DNA of 61,726 nucleotides, filler included, from Asterionella formosa (taxonomy: Eukaryota): assembly GCA_002256025.1 (NCBI GenBank). It is 18 parts of 18 records of this genome, joined end to end, with 100 filler letters (N's around TTAATTAATTAA, not from the genome) between each part and the next. Parts side by side here need not be neighbours in the genome. Positions count along the whole stretch, not along the records: positions 37,837 to 41,171 come from NKIB01014233.1; positions 41,272 to 44,603 come from NKIB01014234.1; 16 more parts are not named here. One strand, written 5' to 3'. A program made the translations under genes and the position numbers. Each line of letters starts with the position of its first letter. The first letter of the stretch is position 1. The notes under the pieces were generated by a model. The model saw only the letters and a list, made by a program, of their open reading frames with translations. It did no database searches and had not been told where the DNA came from. Shown here piece by piece: positions 5,694 to 61,726 of this stretch.

Positions 5694-6407
5694 GGGTTTA
5701 ATGGAATATGCAAACGACTCGAATTGTAGATGAGACTGGGCGGACAAATTGTCAAGACTGTGTTTGCCTAGAAATAATGATGGTCTTTTCTGATGGACGT
5801 GGTCTTGTGTTGGTGTGAGGTCCCTTTTTTAATTTATAAGAACACAATTAATTTAATTTTTGTCGCTCTTTTTGTGTGTGTGCAATCAGCGGCAACCATA
5901 CGTATATACCGGTACTGTGGTACCTGGTACCAGGGTACTAACAGCCATCCTGTAAGAGGTCATTTTCTTCGCTCTCTTGTCGAATCACTCCTACATATTC
6001 AGGTGTAATGGAAATAACGACAGGAAACAACTCCAACAACGAACGAGGTCTGATGCTTCAATTGGCTGAACAATTCTCTATATTTCTATATGATCAATAT
6101 ATATGCGTGAATAATACGATATAAGAAATGTCAACCTTGCCACCGGAATATTTCCTTACATGAGTAAAAATATGTCTCCGACTAAATAGTAATTACGCAG
6201 CTAGAGCTGTATGAGGCAGTTGACCAATTACCTATACCTGGTACTGCGGAGCCTGAATAAAACGTATTCCCTGGTATCTTCTTGAAGAAGTTGCCTCGCA
6301 AGGATGTTTTTACCTGCGATATGAGACAATTATGAATACCGGTTTATCATTCTATGTAGGCCCTGGTAACAGGTAAATGGGAGACTGCTACGGAGTACCA
6401 GGTATAG

Positions 6408-6787
6408 TACCCCAGTAAGAAACTGCCCTGACCCATTGAGAATATTTTTGTACTGCTCTGACCCATTGAAAGAATAACACGTTTTGATGTCAAAACTTAC
6501 ATAAATGTAGATTCTGAGAGTTCTGGCACTCTCCCGAGCATGCAGGGTACCAACTAAAAACTGATAGTGAACATTAAATCGAGTAAATTCACGTTTTGGG
6601 CTAAATATGCTAGATACGAACATAATTATTCAAGAAACGTTGTAGCGATTTAAGTACTAACCAATAATGATTGTGCTTTGAACTTGTCAATTAGCTAGCG
6701 TTACTTCCGTATTTGGTCCCAAAGGTTGCTGTCGACGAGAAATGGAATAAAAAAGCTAAATTAATTTTTATTTCATTCAGCTGGCAT
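6408..6787 (+). mobile_element. Two adjacent DNA-transposon ends of the TA-CCA..AAAAACTG family (at about 6412 and 6550)
   Basis: CCAGTAAGAAACTGCCCTGACCCA with an internal direct repeat resembles 44896. TA+CCAACTAAAAACTGATAGT (6548) resembles 16498 and the reverse complement of 52447. Confidence 0.55.
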
Positions 6788-17511: not shown

Positions 17512-18595
17512 ATGATGAAGCTTGTATCCTTGTTGGTCGTTGTCGGCGTCTTCACCAGTACGGTGGGTGCTTATGGTAAGTAGCAGCTCACTACTAAACT
17601 GAACATTCCTTGCTATTCTGTTGTCACAAACCGGACTTGCAGTGAATAGTTGACAAGTTGAAGCCACGCTCGTCGTTGTGGCTCAGGTGGATACCAAATG
17701 TGACAATCGCGCTGCTGCTCTGTGACACTCACCACTCTGTCTGCTGCCAGCACCATCCTTTGTTCCTCGACTTTCTGGCGCTGCCAGCATCACCTCCCTG
17801 CCCAAGAACGTGCGAGACTTGAACAGTATCTACTCCAATACGAATGCCAGGCGCAACAACGATATCAAAATGATGCCCATTGGTGTCCCCAAGGTTGCTT
17901 ACCGTGTTCCGGGATCTCAAAGTGCGGATTGGTGAGCGTCGTGGGAAGGTCGCGCTGTAGCAGTTTTATATTACCTCTTGTTGCTGTTTTTATTGTTGGT
18001 CTCGTCGAAAACCATTGGACTCACTCACATATCTTATATCAGGGTCGACATTTACAACCGCCTCTACCGTGAACGCATCATCTTCTTGGGATCAGAAATT
18101 GATGACGAACTTGCCAATCAAATCATTGGGGTCATGTTGTATTTGGACTCGGAAGACTCCTCCAAACCCATTTATTTGTACATCAATTGCCCTGGAGGGT
18201 CCGTCATTTCAGGACTTGCCATTTACGACGCCATGCAGCATATTAGGTCTGAAGTTATTACTATTAATTTAGGCCTCGCCGCATCCATGGCATCCTTTAT
18301 TTTGGCAGCAGGGTCCAAAGGCAAACGTTTGGCATTGCCCAGTTCAAGAATCATGATCCATCAGCCCATGGGTGGAGCACAGGGGCAAGCAGAAGATATT
18401 AAAGTCGAGGCGGCACAAATTATGCGCATTCGGGATAATATTTGTAAAATGTACTCCATGATGACAGGACAAACGACAGAGCAAATTACCAAAGATTTGG
18501 ATCGGGACAACTTTTTGAGTGCAGCTGAAGGAGTGGAATATGGATTGATTGATCGAGTGTTGGAGTATAACAAGGACAATGATACTCAGCTTTAA
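17512..18595 (+). CDS. clpP: Plastid-targeted ATP-dependent Clp protease proteolytic subunit, 3 exons (17512-17575, 17751-17931, 18043-18595)
   Basis: Spliced product [25 protein letters not shown]...[36 protein letters not shown]. Catalytic S (AASMASF), H (IMIHQP) and D (DRDNF) are present. Both introns are GT-AG and keep frame; GAYAP is an ASAFAP-type motif. Confidence 0.93.
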
Positions 18596-20652: not shown

Positions 20653-22424
20653 AATATGATCAAGGTATCTTGTATCTATGATGATTTATTAATATGTTAC
20701 CAACCTTGAAGTATAATGATAATAGGAGCATTATCATCACACAATGTATATAAACTGATCAACAACATTTCTCGTCAATATCATAAACCTTCTCATATTA
20801 TTATCACTTCTCGTGATCGCCCGATGTAAATTATAACTACAATGCATCCTAACATCAGCTAATTTATATGCTATCATTTGAATTGTTTCATTGTATATCT
20901 ATCTTAAACATGATCATATTTCTAATTACAAGGATTGTTAAAAAAGGATTGGAACAGATCTTAATTTAATTGACAAATTTAGCAATGCTATCTATGATTC
21001 TACAGGCCAGCAACCCAACGTTTCTCTCTACTCGGCTCAATGAATATTGATCGTGTCTCGCCCTTTCCTTCCTCTATTCTGAATCTTGCGCCATACAGTG
21101 CTTAATGTCTCGCATTTCTCCCTGCAATTAGTGACACTCTGAACTCACCGACTATTCTGTTGTTTGATTGGTTTTATTGTCCTATGCAGTAACAGTAACA
21201 ATGAGAAGGAATGATTTGTTAGCTAGTCATGTTACATTGACACAACGACACACAATTCCACCGTATCCTCTTGCTTCACTTACCACAAATCAATGCAACT
21301 GATGCATAATTCTGTAATAGTAACTTGGCAGTAAGCCAAATTCTTGAATAAGTAAGTTTCGGGTATCCAATGTTGTCGAATAAAACTTACCGGTTCATTT
21401 TTGTCAGCTTAACTTTGAGAGAAGGTCAACTTTTTGTCAGTTTTGTTCCAACAGAAGTGAATAGGTCCAACGAGCGACAAGAGCACTTACGCAATTTGGT
21501 TTTGTTTTGTTTTACATTGGTGCTCCCCAACAAGCGAAACGAGCTGTTGAAAGAGCATCAACTGAGAAAAAAGGAAATGTGCATTTAATTAACAATTTGT
21601 TGTTGTGCTGCCTGCCTCCCAACGATTGTCATCCAAGTACCACATTGATGGCTTCATTACCTTAATCATTCTCCATCCTTCGAATGCGCAATGTGTCGAA
21701 GCCACAATGTTTTTCGTTATGTATTGCATAAACTTTCTTTGCTTGTCATGTGCTTAACTACAACATATCTTTTCAAGAAGCAGCAGGCATTGCTTGTTAA
21801 CATGACAGAACGATTTCAAAAATATATATGCCATGAATATAGTAAAAAAATTTGTAAATATATATATATATATATATTAAGTGTTATACATTTAAAATAA
21901 AATTCAAAGGCGCTCTCGATATGGAGCATCTGATATGGTTGGGATGATCATACTCGCATATACATAATTCGAAAATACTCAATGCACTATATGTCCATTG
22001 TTTCCCACGACTACGAGTACCGGAATTGTTTCTGAAATTTGTTTGCATCGATATTTTCTACGTCCTTTGAAACTAATTATTTAGACCGTTCAATTGCCGC
22101 AAGGGTTTTGGTAGCAAATTGTTTAAGCCCCTTTTTTTGTTGGGAGCTTTTCATGTGTACCTGTACATCATATGACAATAACAATATATCATATATATAT
22201 ATACAGAGTACCAGTAGCAGGTAGTAAGTGATATACTGGGGGTATTCAGAGTAGTAAACTAGCAACAGAACACCATATGTTCAGGACTGTTGCTACTGCA
22301 GTGGGACAGTAAATCATCATAGGTTTGGGATCGTATGATCGTAAAACCAAAAACCAAAAGAACACCATATGTTCATGACCTTTGCAATTACAGTGAGACA
22401 GTAAATCATCATAGTTTTAGGATC
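20653..22424 (+). repeat. Large non-coding AT-rich interspersed repeat, copy 1
   Basis: Colinear and highly similar to 45922-~47685 over about 1.8 kb. Confidence 0.9.
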
Positions 22425-25499: not shown

Positions 25500-25785
25500 T
25501 TTAGACAGTGATATCGATGAGAATTACGATCATGCTAAGATAGATGTATGACAAAAGTATACACATCATATGACCATGTTTAACTAATTATATGATGCAA
25601 TGGTATTATAACTATGATAGTTACATCATACTTCAAGCTCGGTAAAAGTTTACTGCGTGATCATAATTATATGATACATTGATCATATTTTTGATCGAAA
25701 AACTATCATATATGTGAAAATCCTGTGCTACTTAGCGTACGATACCCTTGATCATATTTTCATGATATTTTTTATTTACAGACGT
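25500..25785 (-). repeat. Diverged terminal part of the large non-coding repeat family
   Basis: The reverse complement begins ACGTCTGTAAAT..ATCATGAAAATATGATCA.GGGTAT.GT.CGCTAAGT.GCACAGGATTTT, as at 45826. Confidence 0.75.
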
Positions 25786-27432
25786 CAGGATGATCATTTG
25801 CACTCATTGTAATTGTACTTTTGGGTTGCACACCAAACATCACCTCAATTCTTGCAATCGACTCTTGTATGTATTTCTTGCATCCGAAACACCACCTGCC
25901 CTTTTTGTCCTTCTTGAAGTCGTTCCCAAGGTAATATTCTGGAGGACCTTCAGACTTGATTGTATAGACCTGCTTGAGTCCTTCCATAATTACTTCAGGA
26001 GTTTTCGACACTATCATGAAGTCATCTGAGTGGGTGCAGATATATTCATAGTGAGAAGTATCATTGCTCATCTTGTACCACACATCTTTGTTGTACCTAG
26101 TTGGATGGAACCCCATTCCCCAGATCGTGTCCGCAAAATGCGCCCACCAACGCTCAGAGCTTGATCTCAAACCATATAGTGCTTTTCGGATGAGAATGAT
26201 TGATCCCCTCAACTCCTCTCCAAATTCTGGTCCAGCACGGGAGTATACTAGCTCATTAGTGTATGCATTGACGTAAGCATTTCCAACATCTCCACAAAGC
26301 AGCTTCAAGTTCTGCTTGTGTGCAATCACATGTAGCATTCTAACACTTATGCCTTTCACAGTTGAAGATTAAATATTGTTGTCAAGAGCGTCAACTAAAT
26401 GTCCGCCAGCCATAAGTCTTGCCTTGCGCCATATATCTTGTTTGATGTCAAAGATCACTGTCAGTGTTGTCCATTGATAGCCGACTCCAGGGTTAAAATC
26501 TGGCTTCTTAAATTCAAAATATTCCATTCCGACAAGTGAGGAGATTTCACGTTTGATTGCCTCTTGCCAGAATGTGTTTCCACTTTGCTTGTCCAATTCC
26601 ATTGCATGGGTGACATTTCATGGGACCTCAACGCCATACTTGAGAATTTGCTTCCTAATCTTAGGATGCTTATTCTTTCTTATGTTGGCACGCCTCACTG
26701 TGTACACCTGATCACATCCATCAAAATGATGCTCATGTAACATTGCAATTCTTCGGACAGCTCATTTGATGTCTCGAACTGTTTTCTTTGCCCATTGCAT
26801 GACTCTATCCAGTCGTTTGTAACGACTGACATTATTGTCTACAATGTATTGTGCTGTCATGTTTGGATGGTCAAGCTTCAAGTCCTGAAATGATTCCCTG
26901 GAGATGATTTCAGTATCCCAGTGCACCTCCAACTCAAGTTGCCCGGCCTTCCAGCGATGCGCTCGAATATATGTTACCCTGGAACCACTCATCTTTGTTG
27001 CCTCTGTATGCTCTTCAGCTAGATCATTATTGATCTCATCACACATTTCAATGTCGTGTTGCGACAAGTGGATCAAAGTCGAACTGAAAATCATCTGTGT
27101 TGGATAGTGGATTTTTTGATATGTTGTTGTCTACTTCTGATGTAGTGCATTGCTCCTCTTTGACCCCCCTGTTCCTCTAGAACCTTTGATGTTTCAATGA
27201 TCTGAGGAGTGTCTTTCCCCCCCCCCTGTTCCTCTAGACCCTTTGATGTTTCAATGATCTGAGGAGTAGAAGCAAAATGAACAAGACGAATAGGATCATG
27301 ATCCTCTGGTTCATCTAGAGGTTCAGGAATAGGACTGGTGGGAGCGTTCCTTTTGCGTTTACGATCCTTCATTTTTGTTATTCTGGACTTGAGCGTAAGG
27401 TCACCATAAGGTACCTCATCACTGTAAGGCTC
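25786..27432 (-). mobile_element. Decayed CoDi-type Ty1/copia pol fragment (inter-domain region plus RT)
   Basis: KYGVEVP*NV.HAMELD..GNTFWQEAI, VIFDIKQD..RKARL.AGGH, DVGNAYVNA, KALYGLRSS, YICTHSDDF, YYLG. Several in-frame stops; a ~60-nt tandem duplication near 27165-27270. Confidence 0.9.
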
Positions 27433-30645: not shown

Positions 30646-30967
30646 GATGGTGGTAGGTGGGTCGGTCGAGTGCGGGTGAAGCCAAAGCGGCTTGTGATGT
30701 TGATTGTTACTGACGGCTATTAGTACTTAGGTACATGCTATGTGGATATCCGTACTCGGAGGAGGTACCACCTGGTACCAGGTACTACCGGGATCATAGC
30801 GGTATATAGTGTAACCATGACCATGAAAGGAGTCGTCGCTTGCAGAATATTTATATATATGGTAATANNNNNNNNNNNNNNNNNNNNNNNNNNNNNNNNN
30901 NNNNNNNNNNNTTAATTAATTAANNNNNNNNNNNNNNNNNNNNNNNNNNNNNNNNNNNNNNNNNNNN

Positions 30968-34402: not shown

Positions 34403-36321
34403 TGCTTCCGCGCTTCTCCCTGCCCCAGCAATTATGACCTGCGAGCGTCCAGAGTCGTTTGGCCCCCACCAACGACGCTTCTCATCTCATGATCTCCATA
34501 AACTGTTCGGGAATCGAAAATTCCGCAACTACTCTATTTTCCCCACTGTCGCCGATGGCATCATACTCTCTGAGAAGTTTGAGCCTCCCATATCCATTGG
34601 TGATGTCGTCAATATGAAACGGGGCCCATCGGGGTCCCCTCTTCCCCGCCCTACTGCCATTCTCCACCGTGTTGGCGTGGACATTGGCTATGGTGATGGT
34701 CCAAGCCCAGGCGGTTACCGCTACTGTCTCATGTTAGTGGACCAATTCAGTCGAAAAACCTGGTGCTATGGGTTGAAGGATCTATCTAGCCCCTCCATCA
34801 CTGACGCCTTCTGGCGCTTCTTTGTCGATTCGGGCGGTTTTCCCCGGGTTATCCAATGCGATTTCGATCATAAATTTTTAGGGGGCCCGACCTACAAACT
34901 CCTTGTTTCTAAGGGCATTCGGGTCAATGCCGCTCCCCCCTACCGCCAATCGCAAAACGGCCTCGTGGAATCTCACTGGCGGGTTGCTGTCTCTATGGCT
35001 CGCTCCTTCCTTGCCGAAGCGTCACTGCCCAAGCGCTATTGGTTCTGGGCGGTGCGGGAAGCCTCCCTCCGCATGAATATGGTCCCCTGTCTCCATGGCA
35101 GCACAACCCAGTATACCACCCCATTTGAATTATTCTATGGCACTAAACCTAACCTCCGCACCCTTTTTCCTTTTGGCTGCATTGGTTACTATCGTCGCCC
35201 CCGCGACAGCACACGTGGCGCCCGCACCCAGTTCGAAAGTCAGAGCTTCACAGGCATCGCCTTAGGTCGGGCAGATACAGCAAATGGAATGCTCTTCTGG
35301 AATCCCACCCTTGGTCGTTTCTGCGTCTCTGCGGATTACTCCCTAGACGTTACCCGTGCCATCGCTGACCCCTTCCCCGACATCATCTACGATGGCGGCC
35401 TTCACCTGCGGCTATACACTGACTCCACCACCACGGCGGCTGAACCATACCCCCCTGGCAGTACGGCGTTTGTCCGTCTGACCCCTCAGGGCGACGTGGC
35501 CGAGGGCCTCATCAACTCGGTCCCTACCTCGTCCGTTCGTTTTTACACGGTTGACCTCCTGGATGGCGCATCTATCACCGCCTCCTTTACTGACCTCATC
35601 TCCCCCGACGAGGCCATTAACCCGGCATTTTCCCAACATTCCCCTGATGGTTCCCATGATGGCGACCCCCTTACTCCCCTCCTCCCTCCTTGGATGATGG
35701 TTGGTTCTAAAGTCACTATCGCCCTGGACGGTGCCTTTGTCCGTGGCACCCTTGATGTGGATTCTGATTTTGATTGGCTTTTTATTCGGCGCAACTCCGC
35801 TGGCCAAATTATTCACCAACACAGCCTTGTCGACCTCCCTTACACCTGGCGGCAACGCCTTCACGAAGAAACCCTCCTGACTGGGTGGAACACTCTTCCC
35901 TCCCCGGGCCCTCCCACTACCATCCTTGGCCATGGCCACCATGTGTCGGCCGCTACCCTTCATCATGAATGCCCCCCCACACTGGCCCGGGCCCTCCTTC
36001 CCACCTCTCCCGACCGCCTCGTCTGGTTGGACTCCTACCGTGAAGAATACGACTCCCTCTGTGACCAGCAAACGTTCTCCGTCATCACTCAGGCTGATCT
36101 ATCCCTCCTGTCCTGCAAGGTTCTCCCCTGTATGACCGTCCTCACTGTTAAACGCGATGAACTTGGCCACCCCGTCCGCGCGAAATCACGCATCGTGGTC
36201 CTTGGCAACCTCGAGGAGACCTACTGGTCCAAATCCGACACCTACGCCCCTGTCCTCAGTCAGGTTTCTCTTCGGCTCCTCCTCTCCCTGGCCATTGAGC
36301 GTCGTTGTGTCCTCCACCAGG
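34403..36321 (+). mobile_element. Ty1/copia pol fragment (integrase core to start of RT), open reading frame
   Basis: VGVDIGYG, LMLVD..SRKTW.YGL, IQCDFD.KF, QSQNGLVE..W, KRYWFWAV, TPFELFYG.KP, LFPFGC.GYY, then RT start AKSRIVVLGN.E...YAPV. Confidence 0.9.
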
Positions 36322-36660
36322 GCCTTTTAACTCAAATATTATTTCAGTTTTTGTGTCAATAATCTTACTTTCATTCGTTTTGATGATGGTTTGATATAGA
36401 TTTATATAGGGATTATTTACGTTCGTCACTAATTAGTGTTCTGCTTACATCAGGCTACTGGTTTGGTATTACTACTATGACAGATGTCAGCCAGCAAGCG
36501 AGAATTTTTTGTTTGATTGCTTTTTTTCTTCTCCACCTTTGCCTCCACCTTGCTCCGCTTCCGCTTCCGCTTCCGTTTCCGCTTCCGCTTCCACTTCCGC
36601 TTCCGCTTCCGCTTCCGCTTCCACTTCCGCTTCCGCTTCCGCTTCCGCTTCCGCTTCCGC
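36321..36660 (-). repeat. Shared transposon 3' segment plus a (GAAGCG)n hexamer array
   Basis: 36322-36565 is near-identical to the reverse complement of 51826-52056. About 18 CTTCCG units span 36554-36660. Confidence 0.85.
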
Positions 36661-40700: not shown

Positions 40701-42220
40701 GCAAGACGATAGCTGGAGCGGGAATTGCTCCCGGAAAAACTACCGGTATTTGGTACAAGAGAAGGCCCTGACATCTTAATTTCGTGCATAAGTTGAAACA
40801 CATAGAGATTCCTGATTCCTGATCAGGTTATGACTGTCAATATATTTTCGCCTCTAGTGACCTGATTAGGAACATGTACCACAATCCACTAGATGATTGA
40901 TTCAAGATTACATGGTTAAATATCGCGTGTAAAATGCCACAGTTGAGAGAGGAACTTTCAGGAGAAGTTCTCTCTAACCTGTTAATTGGACTCTAGTAGA
41001 AGACGATCAGACCTAGAAGCCAAATCAATAAATGATTGACTAGACAATTACAGATATGTCCGCAACATCAAGGAACATTAAAGAAGCAAACTAGATATGA
41101 TCTAGTTATGATTAACAGGATCATTCTGTAAGTAGTCTTCGATCAAACAGCATCTGGCCTAAGTTGAGACANNNNNNNNNNNNNNNNNNNNNNNNNNNNN
41201 NNNNNNNNNNNNNNNTTAATTAATTAANNNNNNNNNNNNNNNNNNNNNNNNNNNNNNNNNNNNNNNNNNNNATCGTGCGTACAGTTATGGTTTAATTAAA
41301 CCAAAAAATTAAACCCCCAGTTAAACCGGGTTTAATTTTTCTACTGGCAAATACTATTGTAACACGGTGCTTCCACTAGTATTTTCAGATCAATACCGTG
41401 CCAGTATTAACATGACCCAGTAGACACATACCAGAGGCCTACGGGAAAATACAACTTGGGTTTAATTTTACCAATTACGGTACGGTATAGTAAAAAATAA
41501 TTTAGAGAGTAACAAATATATTATGATAACCGAGCAGCAATGAAATTCAGCATCTAATTAATCATCATGAGTTTGGAGTACCCGCCCTGGTACCCCTAGT
41601 ACCAGGGTGGTACCAGGTACATGGTTTCCTGTTGTTGATATGTATTTAGAAGAATGATGTTGATGGCTGCAAAGCAAGGGACCAGGATCGAGCAACTGGC
41701 GCAGCAGGCGACACGATACATGATACTATCCAGCGACATCACATATACCGCTGATACCGGTGTATGTATCAAGTACAATACTGTACCTGGTACCATGTAC
41801 CTGGTACCAGGTGCCTGTTTTGTAATGGACCTACCAGCATCTATGATGAGACAATGCATCGCTCAATGATCAGTACCTGGTACTAGTACAGTACCAGGTA
41901 CCAGGGTGAACCAGGGTTGCAGTACCAGGTACCTAGACCTGGTACCTGGTACGCAAATCGCGAATCATCGTTTCCATGTCCATGTTCTTTTAATGATTGT
42001 TACTGTAGAGGGTTGTATAGGATCATATATATTTATAGACAAGACGACGCTGGAAGTTTATTTCTTTGATTTTAGAAAATATGTACCGGCAGGAAGAATG
42101 GAATGATACATACCGGTACCATCGTTTTTGCTAGATACGACCACACTATGTAGAAGGAGGTATACTTTTGTCATTATCGTATTTATTTAATACACGCACA
42201 CAAAAGCAAAGGCTCATGCG

Positions 42221-42940
42221 ATGACAGCACAGTCAGCATCATCCTCAACCGAACATTGCAAAGCGATAACACCATTTCTGACAGTTCATGATGCTCCGGT
42301 TTATTTTCAAGAAGATTGGAACACAGGAATTGGTGGAGGGTTGTGGTCCACTGGCCTGGCCATGGCACATTATTTCTGTTCCGAGTCGGCGAGAAACTCC
42401 GTTATGCGACTAGCAGCACCCGCGGAAACGAAGAAGCCGTTACGAGTGCTGGAGCTGGGAAGTGGAAATGGATTTTTATCAGTTTGTTTACTAGCCATGG
42501 CACGAGACTACATCGACACTTTGGTTGTCACAGATGTTGCCGATCATTTGCCATTAATAGAAAAGACTGTGGCAGCAAACCAGCATTTGATAGTTGCAGC
42601 TGATGACCATCATCCTGTTACGAAAATTATTATCAAAGAACATAACTGGGGAGAATTTGAAAACAACATGGAGGAGACATTCAACTTGATTCTTGGTTCA
42701 GACGTTGCCTATCGTCCTTACCTATACGACCCTTTGATATCGTCTCTATCACATTATTCCGATTCCAACACCATATCGTTGATTGGAGTCACCATGAGTG
42801 ATACCACACCTGCATTTTTCGTCAAGCTGCAAAAGGCAGGCTTTTCTTACACGAGATTGAATGATTTCTTAATGCATACAAACTTTCAAGGGACTACCTT
42901 TGCCATTTTTGTCATTCGAAAAAAGGCAAATGTCTTGTAA
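42221..42940 (+). CDS. SAM-dependent protein methyltransferase, family 16 (METTL21-like)
   Basis: GIGGGLW.TG, VLELGSGNG, VVTD, WG, ILGSDVAY. Confidence 0.9.
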   Translation: MTAQSASSSTEHCKAITPFLTVHDAPVYFQEDWNTGIGGGLWSTGLAMAHYFCSESARNSVMRLAAPAETKKPLRVLELGSGNGFLSVCLLAMARDYIDTLVVTDVADHLPLIEKTVAANQHLIVAADDHHPVTKIIIKEHNWGEFENNMEETFNLILGSDVAYRPYLYDPLISSLSHYSDSNTISLIGVTMSDTTPAFFVKLQKAGFSYTRLNDFLMHTNFQGTTFAIFVIRKKANVL

Positions 42941-43018: not shown

Positions 43019-43771
43019 TCATACAGCATCTCTGGAACGAATCGTGGGAGGATTCATCCATGACGGTTCCGTCACTTTCGGTTTCCCATCCCCTCTCACA
43101 AGAGCTCCACCATCTTGTGGGGAAAATATCAATGCTCCACCATCTATACAATACCGTTCCCCGGTCACAAATGCTGGAGTTCCAACAAACAATCGTCCAT
43201 CTTGAAAGACATCTCCCAAATGTCCACCACAATTGGCACATCGAACTTCAGCCCCACCAAGGGTCTTTTGAAGGGCTCCTACTGATTCTACTTGTACATT
43301 GCTGGTATCTACACTCGATGCAAAGCTGGGCCATCCTGTTCCTGAATGAAATTTAGCCGAAGATGTAAAGAGGGGAGTAAAACATCCAGCGCATTGGTAC
43401 ATTCCTGTTCGTTCTTCGCTTTCCAAGACGGACGTGTTTGGGCGTTCTGTCCCGCCTTGGCGTAGAATATAATATTGTTGAGGAGATAAAAGGTACCTCC
43501 ATTCCTCATCTGAATGTTGAATGCGATACCCAATGGATCGGTCCTGGCTCATGGCCTGCGATGTTTTTGGTAGTGCAGTCATCCCAGCAGCAGCGCTGGC
43601 GACACAGAGAATGGATTGCCGTCTTGTGATATCTTCATTGTTTGTTGCTCGGAGGAGCGACGAGCTTTCTTGAATCGGACGGATGACGGAGCTTGTCCAG
43701 GAGTGGATGACCGTCAATGAACAAAGCAAGCAACAATGAAAAAAAAGTATCAACATCAATCGGCCTGTCAT
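43019..43771 (-). CDS. msrB: Peptide methionine sulfoxide reductase B, plastid-targeted
   Basis: EWR..LSP.QY.ILRQ.GTERP, CAGC, KFHSGTGWPSF, EVRCANCGGHLGDVF.DG and RYCIDG. N-terminal signal peptide followed by a transit-like region. Confidence 0.93.
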   Translation of the reverse strand: MTGRLMLILFFHCCLLCSLTVIHSWTSSVIRPIQESSSLLRATNNEDITRRQSILCVASAAAGMTALPKTSQAMSQDRSIGYRIQHSDEEWRYLLSPQQYYILRQGGTERPNTSVLESEERTGMYQCAGCFTPLFTSSAKFHSGTGWPSFASSVDTSNVQVESVGALQKTLGGAEVRCANCGGHLGDVFQDGRLFVGTPAFVTGERYCIDGGALIFSPQDGGALVRGDGKPKVTEPSWMNPPTIRSRDAV

Positions 43772-43943
43772 GATCTCATCGAGCTGCTCCTTTCTTTACT
43801 AAATCTCGGCACAGATAACAAAATTTATATCCTACTTTATTCACTTATTACCTGGTGCCTGGTACCACAACGTTATGCTACGAGCTCTGGTACCAGGTGA
43901 GCAATCCTGCACATCGATACAGATATATATAGAGTTGGGGTTA

Positions 43944-44603
43944 TGTCAAATATATCGGAATTCAATAATGAGAGAACTCGACTAACACCCATTCTATACT
44001 TTGATGTCAGTTCAGGAAATGAGTTATACATAAGGATTAATTAATAAGCTCATATATTCAACAAATACTATTACTTCTAGTTAGATACTTCACTTTGAAT
44101 TCAAAAAGAGTCGAATTAGAAGACAACAAACATGGCAATGTATTCAAGGGTTCCTGTGATTCCTTTGATCAAAGACTACAATGTATTGACTATCAAAACT
44201 AAAACGTTCAGAGTTGCTTTAACCGGTGGAAGGTTTGAATCGTTTGATCAAGATATGATCGATGGAAGCTCAGTGGAAGCATTGTTAATTGGAGTGAGTC
44301 AATTTCGTGATATGGCTAACACATGTGACTTTAGCCCTGCAGATACCTTTTCCTATTTTAAAAGGTGTTTGACAGACATTGCCTTATCGGATTGGTTGAA
44401 TGTGGAAGTACACCCAGAAGATCAATCTTACGATAGTTTCGAAGAAGCGATGGCTTTATGGTTAGACGATCGTTTACCAAATGAGAGTTTTCAACATCAA
44501 CGACAATGGATGCTACGTTATTTATCTAAACCCTTTTCCATGTTGGTAATGGATTACGGAGCTCGTATTAAAACTTTAAACAGGCTACTTCAACTAATGC
44601 CTC
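43944..44603 (+). mobile_element. Probable Ty3/gypsy 5' end: candidate 120-nt LTR (43944-44063) and gag (44132 to contig end)
   Basis: Gag-like F.YFKRCL...A..DW...QRQWM.R...KP.SM.V.DY.ARI..LN.LL..MP. The candidate LTR has imperfect inverted ends TGTCAAATATAT/ATATATTCAACA. Confidence 0.55.
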
Positions 44604-44893
44604 NNNNNNNNNNNNNNNNNNNNNNNNNNNNNNNNNNNNNNNNNNNNTTAATTAATTAANNNNNNNNNNNNNNNNNNNNNNNNNNNNNNNNNNNNNNNNN
44701 NNNCCAGGTTCTACGGAATAGCTGTAAAAGATAATGGCTTCTTAATCAGGGCAGAAAAATGGGGAGTTTTGTCTCCCCAAAAATTGGACTATCAAGAAAA
44801 GACGACGCTTGTACAAACCGAATGTTTGTTTGATCCTGTTCTGTGAATCATTTGTCGTCGTATGTACTGCTGGGGGTACCTGGTACTCCCTGG

Positions 44894-45050
44894 TACCAGT
44901 AAAAAACTGCTGTGACCCACTAAAAAAAATTTGGAACCGCTGTGACCCACTGAACAGGAAAAAAGCACGGTTTGACCCTAGCAAATGCAGATTTGCTAAT
45001 TTTAAAATTTCGACCCTAATCCTGAGCATGTACGCTTTAAGGCTATGCCA
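44894..45050 (+). mobile_element. DNA-transposon end of the TA-CCA family
   Basis: TA+CCAGTAAAAAACTGCTGTGACCCAC with an internal direct repeat GCTGTGACCCACT; similar to 6412. Confidence 0.5.
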
Positions 45051-45074
45051 TGATTAGATATAAGTTTATAACAA

Positions 45075-45825
45075 TTGGTTTGCTCCAAGTGACTTTCGTC
45101 CATTTAGATTCTTACGAGGATGTAGTTTCCACACTTTGCGGGAGTAGAAGTTTTCAATCTCAGCTTTGATTGCCTTGGTCCATTCGTCTTTTTCGTTACT
45201 CAGTAGTGCCTGCTTGTAGCTCTTGGGTTCCAGTGGGTCAGAAGCTAGGCTCGTTAAATGTGCTTATTCGTTAGGTTGGTGCTCTTCGAGGTTTTCATTC
45301 GTGTCGTCATCCAAAATAAGCGTGCGTGCTGCGGATGAGTGCTGACGTGTACCTGCACGAGTAGGTGTAGGCGAGGTCACAAGGCCTGTTGATTGCCTAT
45401 TCAATTCTCGATCTAGCTTTATAAATTTCGTAGCATAATTCGTACGATGCTCGTTCGTATTCATACCACCTGCGACGGAATCTGCAAAGCTCACTCCTTT
45501 GGGAGTACTGGGATCGTCCGGTTTCGTTGGTAGATGCGTATCATCGCCTTGTTCGTCAGGAGGTATTGCGTTGGAAGGTTTGGTAAGAGTGTAAAATTCT
45601 TCATCTATACCGGATCCGTCTGTGGTGAATTCGTCCATGTCCGCTGTCGGTTTGGCATTTCCATGCCAGTCGGCCCATTTAAGGTCTTTTGTGTTGAAGA
45701 CCTTTTTCGTGGCAACGTTGTACATGCGGTAGGTATCACCGGCGTGGTCATGGCTGTATCCCCAAGCACGACACATTTGACACTTTTTGGGGTTAGTTTC
45801 TGCCTTGGCATCCGAATCGTGGCCC
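45075..45825 (-). mobile_element. Decayed Ty1/copia pol fragment (integrase C-terminal region to RT start)
   Basis: KLTPKSVKCVVLG/YSHDHAGDTYRMYN..TKK (frameshifted), then LASDPLEPKSYKQAL....EWTKAIKAEIENF..RKVW. Confidence 0.85.
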
Positions 45826-48032
45826 ACGTTTGTAAATTAAAAAAATCATGAAAATATGATCACGGGTATTGTGCGCTAAGTGGCACAGGATTTTTGTATA
45901 TATGATAATTTTTGGATCAAAAATATGATCAAGGTATCTTGTATCTATGATGATTTATTAATATGTTACCGACCTTGAAGTATAATGATAATAAGAGCAT
46001 TATTATCACACAATGTATATAAACTGATCAACAACATTTCCCATCAACATCATAAACCTTCTCATATTATTTTCACTTCTTGTGATCGCCCGATGTAAAT
46101 TATAACTACAACGTATCCTGAAACCAGCTCAACTCTATGCTATCATGTGAATTGTTTCATCGTAAATCTATCGTAAACATGATCATAATTCTAATCACAA
46201 GATAGCTCAAAATAGATTGAAATGGATCGTAATTTAACTATCAAGTTAAGCAATGCTATCTATTAATCTACATGCCAGCGACCCAACGTTACTCTCTCTA
46301 CTCGGCTCAATGTATATTCCTTTCTTGCTCTTTCTTCCTCTGATCTGAATCGTGTGCGAGGCAGTGCCTTACTGATGCTGCGTCTCTTTCCCTGCTGTAA
46401 GTGTCATTCTGATCTTGCCGACTATTCCGTTGTTTGATTGTTTTTATTGTCCTATGCATGCAGTTACAGTTACAGTTACAATGAAAAGGAATGGTTTGTT
46501 AGCTAGTCATGTTACATTGACACAAGAACACGTAATTCCATCGTATCCTCTTGCTTCACTTACCACAAATCAATGCAACTGATGCATAAGTCTGTAATAG
46601 TAACTTGTCAGTAAATTCTTGAATAAGTAAGTTTCGGGTATCCAATGTTGTGGAATAAAACTTACCGGTTCATTTTTGTCATCTTAACTTTGAAAGAATA
46701 TAAACGTTTTGTTAGTTTTGTTCCAACAGAAGTGAACAGGTCCAACGAGCGACAAGAGCACTTACGCAATTTGGTTTTGTTTTGTTTTACATTGGTATTC
46801 CCCAAAACAAGCGAAACGAGCTGTTTAATCAACTGAGAAAAAAGGAAATGTGGCTGCGATTAGTTAACAATTTGTTGTTTTGCTGCCTGTCATCCAACGA
46901 TTGTCATCCAAGTACCGCATTGATGGCTTCATTACCTTAGACATTCTCCATCCTTCGAAGGCGCAATGTGTCGAAGTCACAATGTTTTTCGTTATGTATT
47001 GCGAAAACTTTCTTTTCTTTTCATGTGCTTTACTACGACGTATCTTTTCATGAAGCAGCAGGCATTGTTTGTAAACATGACAGAACGATTTCAAAAATAT
47101 ATATGCCATGAATATAGTTATAAAATTTGTAAATATATATATCATTTTAGTGTTATACATTTATAAAATTCAAAGGCGCTCTCGATATGGAACATCTGAT
47201 ATGGTTGAGATGATCATACTCGCATATACATAATGGGAAAATACTCAATGCACCATATGTCCTTTGTTTTCCACGACTACGTGTAGCGGAATTGTTTCTG
47301 AAATTTGTTTGCATCGATATTTTCTACGTCCGTTGAAACTAATTATTTAGACCGTTCAATTGCCGCCAGGGTTTTGGTAGCAAATTGTTTAAGCCCCTTT
47401 TTTGGTTGGGAGCTCTTCATGTGTACCGGTACATCATATGACAATAACAATGTATCATATATACATACAGAGTACCAGTAGCAGGTAGTAAGTGATATAC
47501 TGGGGTTGTCGGAGTAGTAAACTAGCAACAGAACACCATATGTTCAGGACTGTTGCTACTGCAGTGGGACAGTAAATCATCATAGTTTTAGGATAGTATG
47601 ATCATAAAACTAAAATTCAAAAGAACACCATATGTTCATGACTGTTGCTACTGCAAAGGGACAGTAAATCATCATAATTTTAGGATCGTATGATCGTAAA
47701 ATTATGATTTAAAAGAACACCATATGTTCATGACTGTTGCAATTACAGTGGGACAGTAAATTATCATAGTTTTAGGATTGTATAATCGTAAAAAAAATCA
47801 ATTAAACACCCTATTTTTATGAATGTTGCAATTACAGTAGAACAGTAAATCATCATATCTTTAGGATCGTATGATCGTAAAACTAAAAAGCAGTAGTCGG
47901 AGTAAAAAGCAAGCAATAGAACACCATAGTAAATCATCATAGTTTTAGGATTGTATGATCGTGAAACTGAAAAGCGGTAGTCGGACTAATAAGCAAGCAA
48001 TAGAACACCATATGTCTATGACTGCTGCTACT
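45826..48032 (+). repeat. Large non-coding AT-rich interspersed repeat, copy 2, with terminus and a ~92-nt tandem array (47530-48032)
   Basis: Matches 20653-22424. Starts ACGTTTGTAAAT. Unit AGAACACCATATGTTCA.GACTGTTGC.A.T.CAGTGGGACAGTAAATCATCATAGTTTTAGGATCGTATGATC occurs about 6 times. Confidence 0.9.
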
Positions 48033-49745
48033 NNNNNNNNNNNNNNNNNNNNNNNNNNNNNNNNNNNNNNNNNNNNTTAATTAATTAANNNNNNNNNNNN
48101 NNNNNNNNNNNNNNNNNNNNNNNNNNNNNNNNGATCTTTGGTTTTGTTTCAACAGCTTTCTTTGCTGCGCACAGTGAAGTCTCTGCTGGTTTCAGTGCCT
48201 ATTTGGCTCTCTCCAGGTGCTTTGTCCTCTATCCTCAGGTTGTGTTGTGGTACGAGCTCAAGGTGACTCAAACAATGAGCAAACAGACCTACAAACCTCG
48301 TGAAGAGCAGTCTTGCTGCTGTGTTTCCAACAAATAGTAAACACACAGTTGCCATTGGCAAACCATACTATCAGGCAGGAGATTTACATTAATTACACTT
48401 GTTGAATGAAATAGGCTCCTTAGCACCGTGTGTGTCCAAGTATTATTCAGGCAGGGTCCTGAATTTTGTTTCAATTAATTTTTTTAGTAAGGTGGGGTTC
48501 TGCCATTGTGATATTGATGTTCCTACCTTTGTATGATAATCAGTGATTTGTACCACATCAACAACAACACCACAACATTAAAACAAATAAGGATGTCAAC
48601 ATTGGCAATGAAAGCAAGGACAACAATGTCAAAGTTGAATTGAAATTTAAAATGGATATGGGCTTGTTGTGCCAGATGTTGAGTAGAAATAAGATATTGT
48701 TTGCTTGGATTAGAATGGACATGAAGAACAAAATTCTTTGCTCTTTATTGTTTTCTTCTTGCACACAACAGGAACAAAAATGTAACATACATACTACATA
48801 CATACATACATACATACTAATGAATGCAGGGAAGCAAGCAACGCCACTTAACAACAAGCCTTTTGTGTCTGGCAGCACTTTTGTATAGATATTTCAAGGG
48901 ATTCAGCTATGCTGCTACCAACACAGTCACCAATTGCAGTACCAATACATTTCAAATAAGTATGTTGACCTATTGAGATTTCAAGGAATATTCCCAAGTT
49001 AACAATACAGTCAGAATTCACAATGTCACATTACAAGTGAGGATTTGCTATAACGCATTAATTCTCCATATTGAATGTCAGAATACAATTTTCAACAGTG
49101 TCCTTTGCATTGCAATTAAGAACAAGATTTAAATTCTTCCTATACAAAATCCATCAACAAACTTGGCAAAAATGGCTCGTCATTAATTCTGGTGGCATCA
49201 TTTCCATTGGAGATACCAACCAGTTTCATTTTTAATGCAAGCAAACAGATGAATATTTCACTATATGGTAGTACAATGATGTAACTCTTTGTATAGGGGC
49301 TACTAGCTACTACTACAAAGACAACATGAAACTAAGATATACTAGTACCAGGTACTTGTCCCTCTCCTTTTCACTTGATTCAAACATCTTGATGAGACTT
49401 CAGCTCCAATAGTTTACATTGGCAGACAAATTCACTGATATGTCCCTCTATTTTATATCACCCTATTACGAATACCAGTATTCTTTTTCTTCAATCATAA
49501 TTTTTTAATGGCATGATTTATCATCATGGCAAGGTACCTGGTACCAGGTACACACAGTATCCTGCCTCTGCTTTTTGTCATCACGAATTCGACTCGCTTG
49601 ACTGCAATTTAAGAATCCGTCCGTCCTTCATCAGTATGTTGTGCTCAGGATGCATACCAGTACACAATTTAGTATACCGGTACTTAATAACACCATGACG
49701 ACCAACCATCCTGCCATCCCTCAGCATCCCAACAAAAAATGTTTC

Positions 49746-51461
49746 TGATGTGAGGGAGTGTGATGGTGGGAGGTGTACTTATCAAGCCAATGTATGTTGA
49801 AAGGTCTCGTACTCCTTCCCGTCTGACGGGTTCCTCTTACGTAAAACTTACCTGTTATACCACTAGTATTGTTATCTTCTTTCTGCTGCTAGCCTTCGTG
49901 CTAGTTTTCGCTATTGACCTTACTCTGTCAATTCTCACTGTTTCTTAATTATAAGATTAAACTAAAACTAAGTTTCAATCCCATTCATCACACTTCGAGA
50001 ACCTGTTCTTCGTGTTCCCTTTTCGTTGATGTAAACCTTCTTCTGATTGATCTAAGACATCAATCTCGTTAGCAAGCTTCTTGACATGGGAACGCACCAT
50101 TTGACTTATTGGACTATAGTCGAGTCCACAGTCCTTGTGACTCATTATAGCCATTGATGCTATATTCTTGACATCCTCCTCGTTACCATGTTCAAGAAGT
50201 TCTAAAATTGTACCACTCAGCACGGGTCCAGATAACCTTGTAAAAATCTGCTCTTTGACATTCTTCGTCAAAATGTCTGCTGGATTGTTTTCTGATCTTA
50301 GAAAAACAATATGAAACTCACCCTCATCTATCATGTTCTTGACATGATGAAACTTAATATCAATGTGTTTTTGTAGTGGACCTTGTTCCATGATATTAAA
50401 ATCCTCCTTGATCATATTTTTCATATAGTCGACTGCATTCCTGGTACCACAAATAATTCCATCATCCACGTAGTTTGCCAACAGCCCTTCAATTTGTCCA
50501 TCGTTGTTACGGTAGATAAACAACATTGGGTCTATTTCACTTTTCGTTATACCTTTCTTGCTGGTGACGCATTTCGCAAATGTCTTAGACCAGCATCTTG
50601 GAGCTTGTACAATTCCATACATAGCCTTAATTAATTTGCAGATATGTATATTCTGATCGATCCCTGTCAATCCTTCTGGGGGCTCAATATAAATGTCTTC
50701 GTCGACGTCAGCATTTAAAAACGCTGCTTCAACATCGATTGCTTCCGCTATCCAACCATAGTACAAAGTAACAGCCAGAACAGTTTTTATTGTAGCATCA
50801 CTGGCAACAGGAGCGAATGTTTCAGTAAAATCAACTCCCGGGATCTGTTCATATCCCTTTACAACCAACCGTGCCTTGTATACTGTCTTTCCGGTTATCA
50901 CGTCCTCCTTAATACGGAAGACCCATCTTGTCTTAAGAGCTCTCTTGTTCACGTCATTTCTCTTAACTATTTTCCACACTCCTCTTGCTTGGAAGTTTTC
51001 AAATTCTTTCTTTATAGCTTTCATCCACTCTTTGCGATCAGGTCTTACCATTGCCTCATTATAACTATTTGGTAAACCTGGGTCCGATGCAAGACTTGCA
51101 TTGAATACGAAATTTACTTCAGTTTCCTTATTCGAAGAAGCTTCCTCCTCAATCACATTTGGTAGTGAAGTGTCTGAAGTGAATTTAACATTTTTAGTTG
51201 GATTATACGATGAGTCCAACTTCTTCATTTCTCGTTCCAACTTTGCCTGTTGCTTCAAAACATTTCTCTTTTCTAGGTCAGAAATTTCATCACTCCTTGA
51301 GGTAGATTTTCCTTTTTCAGTGTCTGCGGTTAAGTTATCCTTGTCGTCATCATCTTCCTTGTTGTCTGAACCTTCTGGTAGTAAATCTTCATTGTAGAAA
51401 TCATCATCTAATCCATCATTATTGACTTCAGCTTCTGGTTGAACTGTTACTTTCTCTTTAG
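49746..51461 (-). mobile_element. 3' part of a Ty1/copia element: RT with internal deletion, RNase H tail, PPT and 3' LTR (50173 to about 49746)
   Basis: YKARLVVKGY.Q.PGVDF.ETFAPV, DVEAAFLN, KAMYGIVQAPR.W, YVDD, then directly KHIDIKFH...SENNPADILTK. The purine tract GAGGAGGA precedes TGTCAAG; the LTR's far end is approximate. Confidence 0.9.
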
Positions 51462-58405: not shown

Positions 58406-61400
58406 GATTGTAGTAAAACTACCCTTAGTATGGGCAATCCACTACCATCACCGCAACAAGGAGTTGTTACCAAACTAATGGATGAAGGGTTGCCTCATAA
58501 CTACGGCATGTCCACTACATCTTCTGCTGTTTCTCCACATATTACCACTTCGGCTCCTCTTCCACCAATTACCACTTCGGCTCTTCCTCCACCAATTGCC
58601 ACCAAGATCGAACCCATGATGGGACAAGTTCCTCTAAACAACAATGCGGATGTTAATAATCACACTCAACAAAATATGGTTCAAGTTTCGTCGGTTACTG
58701 TTTCGGAGGCGAAGATTGAAGAATCAGCTGCTGCAGTAGTAGCAGTTACAACTAGTGCCAAAAGTATGGACTCGTTAGTTAACAAACATGTGATTTCTCC
58801 TCCTATGTGGTCGATGCCTCATAGTCAGGTTCACGCTACAACAACAACAACTACTACTGCTACTACATCAGACGACACTCAAGAAATGACACGGGAACTA
58901 CCAATCCTGAATAAGGCAAAGACATTTGTCAATGATCCAAGTAACACAGCAGCCCTGCCACTTGTACATCATGAGGAAATGGGTACTAAGTCTCTTGTAA
59001 ACGAGCCTGAAGTAGCTGCACAAATATATGGGTTAAACAATGAGGGAAAGTTGCATTCATCAGGTTGGGTGGCTCAATTAGACTCCAGTAGTGGTCAGAC
59101 ATACTATTATCATGCGGACACCCAAGAAACGACATGGGAAAAGCCACTGGAAAATGTCGTCGAGAATACATCTTATCCAAGCAATTCAACAGCAATGCCA
59201 CTAGTAAATCAAGATGAAATAGGTACTGACAATCTTGTGACAGGGAATGCTCGAGAATATGGTTTAGAACATGAAGCTAATGAGAGGTCAGGGAGAGTGG
59301 CTCAGGTAGAAACCAGAAGTGATGGACAAACCTTTTCTGGTTTTATGGACAACCAAGAAATTTCAGTTGAACAGCCTATCCTTCCACTGGAAAATGTGGT
59401 TGGAGATAAATCCGATCCAATCGAGAAAACAAGGCCACAATTGAATCAAGATGAAATGTATACTAACAATCTTGATAATAAGCCTGAGGAAACTGTCCCA
59501 ATTCATAGTTTGGAAAATGAATCAGTTGGGAGCTTTCTTCCATCAGGTTGGGTGGCTCAGACAGACCCCAGCAGTGGTGAGACATACTACTATCATGTGG
59601 ACACGCAAGAAACAACATGGGAAAAGCCAATCCTGCATGCGAACGACACAGATGAATGCCTAGATGTGTGTTCAGATGACAAAGCTGCAACTCCAGAAAT
59701 GAAAAGTGAATTGGTTTCTGACGATCTTGCACAAGAGACAATGATACCTGAGCCAGTTCATAGGATAGAAGATGAATCAGTTGAGGGGTTGCTCCCTTCA
59801 GGATGGGTGGCTCAGGTAGACCCCAACAGTGGCGAGACATACTACTATCATGCGGACACCCAAGAAACAACATGGGAAAAACCAATTCTACAGGGAAACA
59901 ACAATGATGAATACCTAGATTTGTGTTCAGATGAAAAAGCTACAACACCAGAAATGAACGATGAATTTGCTTCTGGCAATCTTGCACAAGAGCCTGTGGT
60001 ATTTGATTCAGTTCATGGGTTAGAAGGTGAATCAGTTGAGGGCTTGCTTCCTACAGGATGGGTGGCTCAGGTAGACCCCAACAGTGGTGAGACATACTAC
60101 TATCATGCGGACACGCAAGAAACAACATGGGAAAAGCCAACCCTGCCACAGGAGGATGTTGTAGTCGGTATGCCGGATGCAAGCAATACAGCAACGTCTT
60201 GGGAGGATCTGTATGAAACGGGTACTGGCAATGCTGTAGAAGAGACTGAGGTCACTGCACCAGTTTATAGTTTGGACAATGAACCTGTTGAGGGCTTGCT
60301 TCCATCGGGTTGGATTGCTCAGGTAGACCCCAGCAGTGGGCAGACATACTATTACCATGCAGATACCAATGAAGCTACATGGGAAAAGCCAATGATGTCC
60401 CTTGACAGTGTTGTCGATGAACCAATCACGACAGAGACATCGATTCCACTAGTGCATCAAGATGAAATGTATCCTAACAATCTTGATAATAAGCCTGAGG
60501 AAACTGTCCCAATTCATAGTTTGGAAAATGAATCAGTTGGGAGCTTTCTTCCATCAGGTTGGGTGGCTCAGACAGACCCCAGCAGTGGTGAGACATACTA
60601 CTATCATGCGGACACTCAAGAAACAACATGGGAAAAGCCAATTCTACAAGTAAACGACAATGATGGATGCCTAGATGTGAGCTCAAGTGAACAAGCTGCA
60701 ACTCCAGAAATGAAAAGTGAATTGGTTTCTGACGATCTTGCACAAGAGACAATGATACCTGAGCCAGTTCATAGGAAAGAAGATGAATCAGTTGAGGGGT
60801 TGCTCCCTTCAGGATGGGTGGCTCAGGTAGACCCCAACAGTGGTGAGACATACTACTATCATGCGGGCACCAAAGAAACAACATGGGAAAAACCAATTCT
60901 ACAGGGAAACAACAATGATGAATGCCTAGATTTGTGTTCAGATGGAAAGGCTACAACGTCAGAAGTGAACAATGAATTTGCTTCTGGTAATCTTGCACAA
61001 GAGCCAGTGGTATTTGATTCAGTTCATGGGTTAGAAGGTGAATCAGTTGAGGGCTTGCTTCCTACAGGATGGGTGGCTCAGGTAGACCGCAACAGTGGTG
61101 AGACATACTACTATCATGCGGACACGCAAGAAATAACATGGGAAAAGCCAATTCTACAAGTAAACAACAATGATGGATGCCTAGATATGAGCTCAAGTGA
61201 ACAAGCTGCAACTCCAGAAATGAAAAGTGAAATGGTTTCTGACGATCTTGCACAAGAGACAATGATACATGAGCCAGTTCATAGGATAGAAGATGAATCA
61301 GTTGAGGGGTTGCTCCCTTCAGGATGGGTGGCTCAGGTAGACCCCAACAGTGGTGAGACATACTACTATCATGCGGACACGCAAGAAACAACATGGGAAA

Positions 61401-61726
61401 AACCAATTCTACAGGGAAACAACAATGATGAATGCCTAGATTTGTGTTCAGATGGAAAGGCTACAACGTCAGAAGTGAACAATGAATTTGCTTCTGGTAA
61501 TCTTGCACAAGAGCCAGTGGTATTTGATTCAGTTCATGGGTTAGAAGGTGAATCAGTTGAGGGGTGGCTTCCTATAGGATGGGTGGCTCAGGTAGACCGC
61601 AACAGTGGTGAGACATACTACTATCATGCTGACACCCAAGAAACTACATGGGAAAAGCCAACCCTGCCACAGGAGGATGTTGTAGTCGGTATGCCGGATG
61701 CAAGCAATACAGCAATGTCTCCAGAG
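58406..61726 (+). CDS. Internal part of a very large acidic protein with a tandem WW-domain array (10 intact, 1 degenerate)
   Basis: The frame from 58406 appears open to the window end (1107 codons), consistent with its absence from the ORF track. LP.GWVAQVDP.SGETYYYHADTQETTWEKP occurs at about 59063, 59546, 59801, 60056, 60308, 60557, 60812, 61067, 61322 and 61577; the degenerate copy is near 59290. Confidence 0.9.

Follow-up and report, generated by a model that had tools for sequence, protein, structure and literature searches.

The short TA-bounded words that crowd the non-coding DNA of Asterionella formosa are, at a rough probability of 0.85 and judging from sequence comparisons, excision footprints that have accumulated and been inherited, left by cut-and-paste transposons of two kinds that target TA, one with CCA…TGG and the other with CCG…CGG termini. 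The link to excision is drawn because the motifs are built of the terminal bases of these elements, the elements duplicate TA, and the flanks of the motifs match the target bias of the elements. The DNA analysed, below called the window, is 61,726 nucleotides long and comprises 18 contigs of ca. 3.3 kb each, joined by spacers, from an assembly of 68.4 Mb in 15,436 contigs; the N-TTAATTAATTAA-N spacers are contig joins and were ruled out as biology. The labelled sequencing runs with matching DNA are mostly freshwater, which suggests a freshwater diatom.

Distribution of the motifs

The window contains 70 copies of TACC(N0-2)GGTA (26 TACCGGTA, 17 TACCAGGTA, 17 TACCTGGTA, and 10 others), whereas 100 dinucleotide shuffles yield 1.21 on average and never more than 5; the copies are spread over 13 of the 18 contigs. 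When words are ranked against an order-2 Markov model, TACCGGTA, hereafter the 8-mer, is the top 8-mer, and TACCWGGTA, hereafter the 9-mer, leads the words of nine bases together with its one-base shifts. TAGCTA and TAGACTA stand ca. 2.3-fold over a Markov model. Some k-mer lists are dominated by a (GCGGAA)n-type short repeat at ca. 36500–36640 and a longer tandem repeat at 59400–61726, both unrelated to the motifs. ATG-initiated ORFs of at least 200 aa (17,373 bases) hold one of the 70 motifs; 60 fall in the 28,289 bases not covered by an ORF of 100 codons, and the other 9 in unclassified sequence. The same distribution is found in 280 kb of other genome stretches, unselected for motifs, with the 8-mer occurring once in coding versus 92 times in non-coding DNA and the 9-mer once versus 62 times. 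In the whole assembly there are 28,528 copies of TACCGGTA (reversed control 1,718) and 26,886 of TACCWGGTA (reversed control 902), ca. 55,000 copies together; with 6 and 7 inserted bases each, respectively, they amount to ca. 359 kb, or, by arithmetic without background subtraction, ca. 0.5% of the assembly. Motif density is 3.4-fold higher upstream of ORFs (56 in 22 kb) than downstream (18 in 24 kb), a count in which ORF starts may include internal exons.

An earlier note, made from the sequence of the window alone, had described such motifs on most contigs, had noticed none in intact coding sequences, and had named a k-mer enrichment in intergenic DNA as the first check; all of this agrees with the counts above, and every cluster it listed was located within 1–11 bases of the position given. 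It had also named what would speak against an excision origin, namely no enrichment over a Markov background, motifs arising by substitution or slippage, or full-length elements lacking TA duplications, and none of these was encountered. The main motifs of the window are as follows (no strand is assigned to any of them):

41611–41619, 9-mer TACCAGGTA in a GG-TA…TA-C context, a putative CCA-family scar
41784–41951, six 9-mers (41784, 41798, 41874, 41892, 41923, 41943), putative CCA-family scars
42111–42118, 8-mer TACCGGTA in an A-TA…TA-C context, a putative CCG-family scar by the flank test
60–102, chained 8-mer and 9-mer units sharing TAs, with starts at 60, 66, and 73
5907–5937, an 8-mer, then a 9-mer chained to a 10-mer
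8115–8130, a pair of chained 9-mers with starts at 8115 and 8122
12809–12845, a chain of A- and T-centred 9-mers
16467–16482, a pair of chained 9-mers with starts at 16467 and 16474, 17 bases ahead of the element end at 16500
30776–30784, a 9-mer in a GGTACC context
44877–44885, a 9-mer, 10 bases ahead of the element end at 44896
49535–49550, chained 9-mers of opposite orientation (T then A) with starts at 49535 and 49542

The cluster at 41784–41951 has mixed A and T centres, all six units lie in a G-TA…TA-C context, and it is situated upstream of a lysine methyltransferase gene (Methyltransf_16, 42191–42937). The other ordinary host genes of the window code for a UDP-galactopyranose mutase (761–2725), a Clp protease subunit (17936–18592), and a SelR methionine sulfoxide reductase (43022–43795), and fragments of Copia-type retrotransposons (RVT_2, rve) are found at 25775–26368, 34404–36359, and 49978–51459.

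Two families of TA-targeting elements

Ends of the form TA-CCANNWAAAAACTG occur 685 times in the genome (control 2). They pair into MITEs of 730–965 bases, and in seven distinct elements of 2.2–3.8 kb the CCA…TGG termini, as terminal inverted repeats, enclose a transposase ORF. The four ends pointed out in the earlier note, at 6550, 16500, 44896, and the reverse of 52445, proved real, TA-flanked, and all of the CCA family; three have G-TA, and the one at 16500 has C-TA. With one decayed neighbour, these ends are:

6412–6549 (+), decayed CCAGT-type element end directly before the 6550 end, 83–86% identical to the ends in L034 and L031
6550–6787 (+), CCA-family end CCAACTAAAAACTG, TA-flanked and cut by the contig end, 85–88% to the full-length MITEs L032 and L153
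16500–17112 (+), CCA-family end CCACTTAAAAACTG, TA-flanked, from the terminal portion of an element with a transposase (L185, 3.7 kb, is 91% identical over 622 bases)
44896–45079 (+), CCA-family end CCAGTAAAAAACTG, TA-flanked, 88% to the full-length MITE L029
51562–52445 (−), CCA-family end CCACCTAAAAACTG, TA-flanked, the terminal 0.9 kb of an element with a transposase (L191, 3.76 kb, is 91% identical over 904 bases)

The genome has at least 150 matches to the CCA transposase, most of them broken; a near-intact copy (L181) has a 779-codon frame with a frame break at a homopolymer tract. The protein, of ca. 900 aa, has a mariner-type RNase-H-like DDD/DDE core of the DD37D type (37 residues between the last two D), in which D310 and D459 are invariant and D497 nearly invariant across 61 homologues. 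No Pfam DDE match was obtained in 41 homologues or in the L083 copy, a PDB sequence search gave no placement, and a profile of the family did not match the one pogo protein against which it was run. Its look-alikes according to a language model are pogo DDE_1 clusters (0.90–0.94). The best structural matches of a model of the protein (pLDDT 83.6) are Mos1, Metnase, and Sleeping Beauty (Z 11.5–13.0, rmsd 3.2–4.6 Å over ca. 190 residues), with integrases ranking lower (Z 9); Foldseek gave the identical ranking, but with E above 0.001. The CCA…TGG elements are TA-duplicating transposons of the ITm fold. The named homologues are from the diatom Fragilaria crotonensis, and the family numbers 8,633 representatives at E 0.001 and 1,347 at 1e-30. 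Among 42 loci of metagenome relatives examined, 12 have a clear terminal pair, all starting with CCA, and the rest have none or a partial one.

A search for TA-flanked inverted termini brought out CCG…CGG elements, absent from the account given in the earlier note. Their ends number 417, 308 in one family (control 0) and 109 in a second (control 4). Copies of 2.3–2.7 kb encode, between TA-flanked terminal inverted repeats, pogo transposases in the narrow sense (HTH and DDE_1, with DD35D spacing), two of them with long open frames: the 2.46-kb elements L282 and L283 have ORFs of 406 and 416 aa (PF03184, DDE_1, E 1e-21 and 3e-20). L278 and L279 carry decayed relatives. In the genome (G000, e.g., C63, C213, C396, C3388), several DDE_1 copies, most of them truncated at contig ends, have identical scores and an open frame of 367 codons, which suggest a recently active CCG-ended pogo family. 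A second ORF of ca. 130 aa with a Cys/His cluster lies on the opposite strand in these elements (L282:393–782, +; L283:2026–2415, −; also L278, L279, and L280); it had no Pfam match and no usable Atlas match. Other TA-flanked elements with inverted termini start with CAAGG (L032:1215–1821), GCCGA (L026:113–1936), and GTTCG (L100:6897–7272).

Full-length elements of both families have TA on both sides in 42 of 49 cases. The empty site is a single TA in a filled and empty pair of a CCA element (L187 versus L063, L108, and the window) as well as in two pairs at CCG elements (L121, L124), so that the TA duplication of the IS630-Tc1-mariner/pogo type, assumed in the earlier note, is borne out. The base before TA is G in 590 of the 685 CCA ends (86%), and 69 of 105 sampled CCA ends have GG there, while at CCG ends all four bases are found (A 15, C 13, G 11, T 7). 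Ends of the form CA…TG with a duplication of four bases, GTAC, were considered and rejected, since non-G before TA was counted 95 times and non-C after TA 38 times (p 8e-7), where equality is predicted. Elements of other kinds are nested in CCA-family MITEs. One of them is TA-flanked, with CTCCCTC…GAGGGAG termini (L050:7118–7945), which resemble those of plant Stowaway/mariner elements, and another, of 500 bases (L161:2223–2722), has GGTTCCTG…CAGGAACC termini and is inserted at a TTAA-like site.

Origin of the 8-mer and the 9-mer

All fetched loci were aligned with each other, and indels were listed regardless of motif. Of the 40 distinct indels of 6 bases, 12 convert a TA to TACCGGTA; of the 27 with 7 bases, 4 give rise to TACCWGGTA, and two of these lie in chains. 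A motif-centred test took the motifs covered by a non-identical homologue, and a site was scored as empty if the motif had collapsed to two bases. An empty homologue was found for the 8-mer at 24 of 72 scorable sites (exact TA in 19) and for the 9-mer at 16 of 55 (exact TA in 13), the latter comprising 9 isolated sites (exact TA in 7) and 7 in chains; at the remaining sites the motif was common to the homologue (8 and 4, respectively) or was substituted or poorly aligned (40 and 35). Multi-copy families have the motif in one copy, with many alignments empty (e.g., 29, 22, and 18, counts that take in overlapping fetches and are not copy numbers), hence the motifs are gains. The inserted CCGG or CCWGG neither copies nor mirrors the flanking sequence. 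Two such sites involve the window:

43966–43967 (+), an empty TA in a repeat, at which the homologue L186:2325 has a clean 7-base CCAGGTA insertion
47424–47431 (no strand assigned), TACCGGTA, a 6-base CCGGTA insertion relative to the single TA at the homologous site in L077

The alignment of 47385–47470 with 21900–21990 of the window concerns a wrong paralogous position and is uninformative. The insert at one ancestral TA consists of element-terminal bases plus TA, as an excision footprint does, and the clean insertions that the earlier note proposed to seek among repeat copies exist in both forms, CCGGTA and CCWGGTA. In a separate case (L035:6400), a 7-base insertion makes TACCAGGTA inside the terminal repeat of a CCG MITE; the homologous site is GTCC in 32 alignments to other copies, and a substitution giving GTAC apparently created the target for a CCA element before the insertion.

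The flanks of the two words differ. At the 9-mer, the preceding base is G in 206 of 248 both-strand counts (83%), close to the 86% of CCA ends (p 0.40) and far from CCG ends (p 1e-10); at the 8-mer it is G in 91 of 288 (32%), a value compatible with CCG ends (p 0.64, n = 34 ends) and not with CCA ends (p about 1e-38). The bias of the 9-mer is partly inflated because chaining builds it in; away from GG/CC neighbours, G precedes 19 of 38 9-mers versus 48 of 228 8-mers. Among newly made insertions, G on the left or C on the right was found at 18 of 38 positions for 8-mers and 12 of 18 for isolated 9-mers, a by-eye count with small numbers and a weak contrast. The minor variant TACCSGGTA has 8-mer-like flanks (8/26), and TACCAGGGTA has 9-mer-like ones (19/22). 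These flanks indicate that the 9-mer probably stems from CCA elements and the 8-mer from CCG pogo elements. The earlier note had derived all the motifs from CCA ends, which stands for TA-CC(A/T)GG-TA and probably fails for most copies of TACCGGTA.

A single family of CCA-ended elements, whose cuts vary between 2 and 3 bases and so produce both words, is unlikely. In its favour, a 2-base cut on CC…GG ends would give TA-CCGG-TA just as Tc1 gives TA-CA-TG-TA (PMC3520976, available part), and the cuts of Sleeping Beauty are described as mixed, of 2 and 3 bases, in the consulted part of 10.1101/659086. Moreover, 8-mers in a G-TA…TA-C context are slightly above expectation (42 of 288 both-strand counts), and some 8-mers may be CCA-made. 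It is opposed by the flank frequencies given above and by the presence of 417 CCG ends together with near-intact CCG transposase genes. In addition, the 226 kb around the best 80 metagenome relatives of the CCA transposase, mostly element-internal and some from related samples, contain 19 9-mers and only 2 8-mers nearby.

In the two-family reading, excision by the transposases would leave the donor site with 3′ overhangs of about three element-terminal bases, and Tc1/mariner transposases are described as leaving 2–3 (10.1101/659086, part consulted). CCG/CCG overhangs would pair via their last CG and close as TA-CCGG-TA, a word that a 2-base cut with fill-in would give as well. CCA/CCA overhangs could not pair, and with one base overlapped, mismatched, or trimmed they would yield TA-CCAGG-TA or TA-CCTGG-TA. 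The third terminal base is required because the centre of the 9-mer is A or T, and a fourth is absent from the scars, with no TACCACGGTA or TACCACGTGGTA in 340 kb even though 68 of the 110 ends sampled read CCAC; for these two reasons a three-base overhang fits best, and we somewhat favour it. A 4-base overhang, which would explain CCWGG for CCAG ends, was rejected, as the predicted CCAC-derived scars are absent. Full fill-in is rare, with TACCATGGTA at 2 sites in 340 kb, and TACCATA shows no enrichment. Scars so uniform would need a putative conservative end-joining pathway, a point against this reading.

Being small and near-neutral outside genes, the scars would pile up to ca. 100 per surviving element and decay by CpG transition. 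The commonest one-letter variant of the 8-mer is indeed the CpG transition (157 both-strand counts versus 10–36 for the others), and old 8-mers decay mainly to TACCAGTA/TACTGGTA. The latter pair was considered as a third scar and rejected, its flanks being 8-mer-like and CpG decay (CpG observed/expected 0.72) accounting for it.

A very unlikely origin of the words is by point mutation, with selection maintaining them as transcription-factor sites or promoter elements, the interpretation given to TACATGTA and TACCGGTA in Phytophthora. The 3.4-fold upstream bias speaks for it, as do, in the available parts of the respective papers, the listing of TACCGGTA (M94) and TACATGTA (M93) among high-confidence promoter motifs of P. 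infestans (PMC3597505) and the report of a Myb protein regulating effector genes via such sites (PMC11134190). Nevertheless, the words appear as whole insertions inside transposon copies, which are no promoters, and their top variant is the one expected of neutral decay; the insertion alleles largely refute this origin, and co-option may have come later. Insertion bias alone could give the upstream excess, as Passer prefers promoters and a AAGTACTT target (PMC9976928, part consulted); by that analogy the excess can come from insertion bias or from selection.

It is highly improbable that CC/GG letters are added at TA breaks by some repair or editing enzyme that has nothing to do with excision, or that hairpin (P-nucleotide) repair of another superfamily makes the palindromes. 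Besides the high number of scars per surviving element, such an origin would agree with the absence of an element-to-scar transition, which also speaks against the excision reading: none of the 49 full-length elements had a scar-bearing homologue at its site (ca. 1 Mb fetched; five had a both-flank homologue, one of them weak). Likewise, no element, scar, and empty triplet was found among the large nested insertions listed, which have TA or TTAA duplications of other elements, and no excision joint of the L033 MITE in contigs of three other runs, whose tables are dominated by repeat copies and which still cover the right end of the MITE. Some contigs have a net length difference of 6, 7, 7, or 14 bases in motif-bearing spacers, to which no weight is given. 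Against such an enzyme or hairpin repair, the inserts are no mirror image of the flanking sequence; they are identical to the termini of resident elements and reproduce the target bias of each family. At L033:3559–5114, contigs of runs X1 and X4 skip ca. 1.55 kb including the MITE, with 16–38 other letters at the joint, the skip representing another allele or a paralogue.

The chains bear on the targets of the CCA family. Of its ends, 27 of 105 adjoin a motif (16 9-mers, 3 8-mers), compared with 1.5% of all TAs, in a sample that includes loci picked for non-G flanks and is thereby biased against this result; none of 46 CCG ends does. Adjacent 9-mers have the same orientation in 41 and the opposite in 28 of 69 pairs, compatible with 50:50 (p 0.15). 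Because CCA ends adjoin motifs and chains mix orientations, the proposal that scars supply new targets for CCA elements is supported, and with it the suggestion in the earlier note that each footprint provides new TA targets and so explains the chains. CCA elements would prefer (G)G-TA-C(C), a scar made there would rebuild two such targets, and chains would grow via feed-forward re-insertion or via local hopping; an element landing again close to its donor site would likewise end up next to a motif. Slippage of a (GGTACCA)n unit, as in microsatellites, to which the tandem chains, the 7 of 16 empty-homologue 9-mer sites standing in chains, and the slight excess of same-orientation neighbours (41 vs 28) might point, is a most improbable source. 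As the main one it is refuted by the non-templated insertions, isolated ones having no adjacent template (window 43966/L186; L190, L100, L069). In addition, copying cannot account for the opposite orientations in 28 of the 69 neighbouring pairs, and 8-mers are mostly solitary. Slippage may lengthen some chains. In MITEs of the L032 family, an internal GGTACC-rich patch at ca. bases 590–620 (e.g., L152:2107–2135, L160:1506–1520) has more units in some copies than in others, a natural series in which the growth of a chain can be followed.

Known footprints and stramenopile promoter motifs

Excision footprints are textbook knowledge. The mechanism is known, and what is unusual is the scale, together with the family-specific code and the self-seeding target. 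Among the sources searched, with subscription papers and repeat databases outside the search and some queries poorly aimed, no publication was found that describes these motifs in diatoms or treats footprints as a dominant word of a genome. As far as the parts consulted go, the footprints of Sleeping Beauty, TACAGTA/TACTGTA (10.1101/659086), and of Tc1, TACATGTA (PMC3520976), likewise consist of terminal bases between two TAs, the former with an A/T centre as in the 9-mer. Canonical Tc1/mariner footprints keep three bases, the 9-mer five (CC-A/T-GG), and a five-base CC(A/T)GG scar from non-complementary overhangs is absent from the available text on the published footprints compared. Unlike the canonical footprints, those of A. 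formosa would be fixed at ca. 55,000 natural sites, two families would write two words, and one scar would regenerate its own target.

The CCG elements resemble Passer, a pogo element with HTH, DDE_1, and DD35D spacing, which in the part of the report available inserts at TA in a GTAC-centred palindrome near transcription starts and leaves footprints of 0–4 bases (PMC9976928). They differ from it by the extra ORF of ca. 130 aa, and the GTAC bias belongs here to the CCA family, whose DD37D protein has no Pfam match. In Asian versus African rice, natural excisions were likewise read from aligned homologous sites, but according to the consulted part of that study they were mostly messy (8 of 94 perfect), with deletions and filler DNA (PMC4423477), unlike the uniform and abundant words found here.

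A further likeness is to the Phytophthora motifs TACATGTA (M93, motif-1) and TACCGGTA (M94), the latter identical to our 8-mer; they are palindromic, TA-bounded, and very abundant upstream of genes in a fellow stramenopile. There they are read as transcription-factor sites, and a footprint origin of TACATGTA was raised and then dismissed for its abundance and conservation (PMC3520976, in the text available). Tentatively, and with somewhat less than even odds, excision scars can become dominant short promoter words with a family-specific code and a self-amplifying loop that rebuilds the target of their own element; if this is general, TA-bounded stramenopile promoter motifs such as those of Phytophthora began as scars, some of which were then co-opted.

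The results point to a large, Pfam-invisible transposase family of mariner fold with a GGTACC-biased target. Footprints, usually treated as rare laboratory by-products, would here make a countable record of excision, which with ca. 100 scars per surviving element goes far beyond what the copy number suggests. Through the scars, mutation would also supply upstream motifs that motif-finding programs would take for binding sites, which bears on the published dismissal of a footprint origin for the oomycete promoter motifs.
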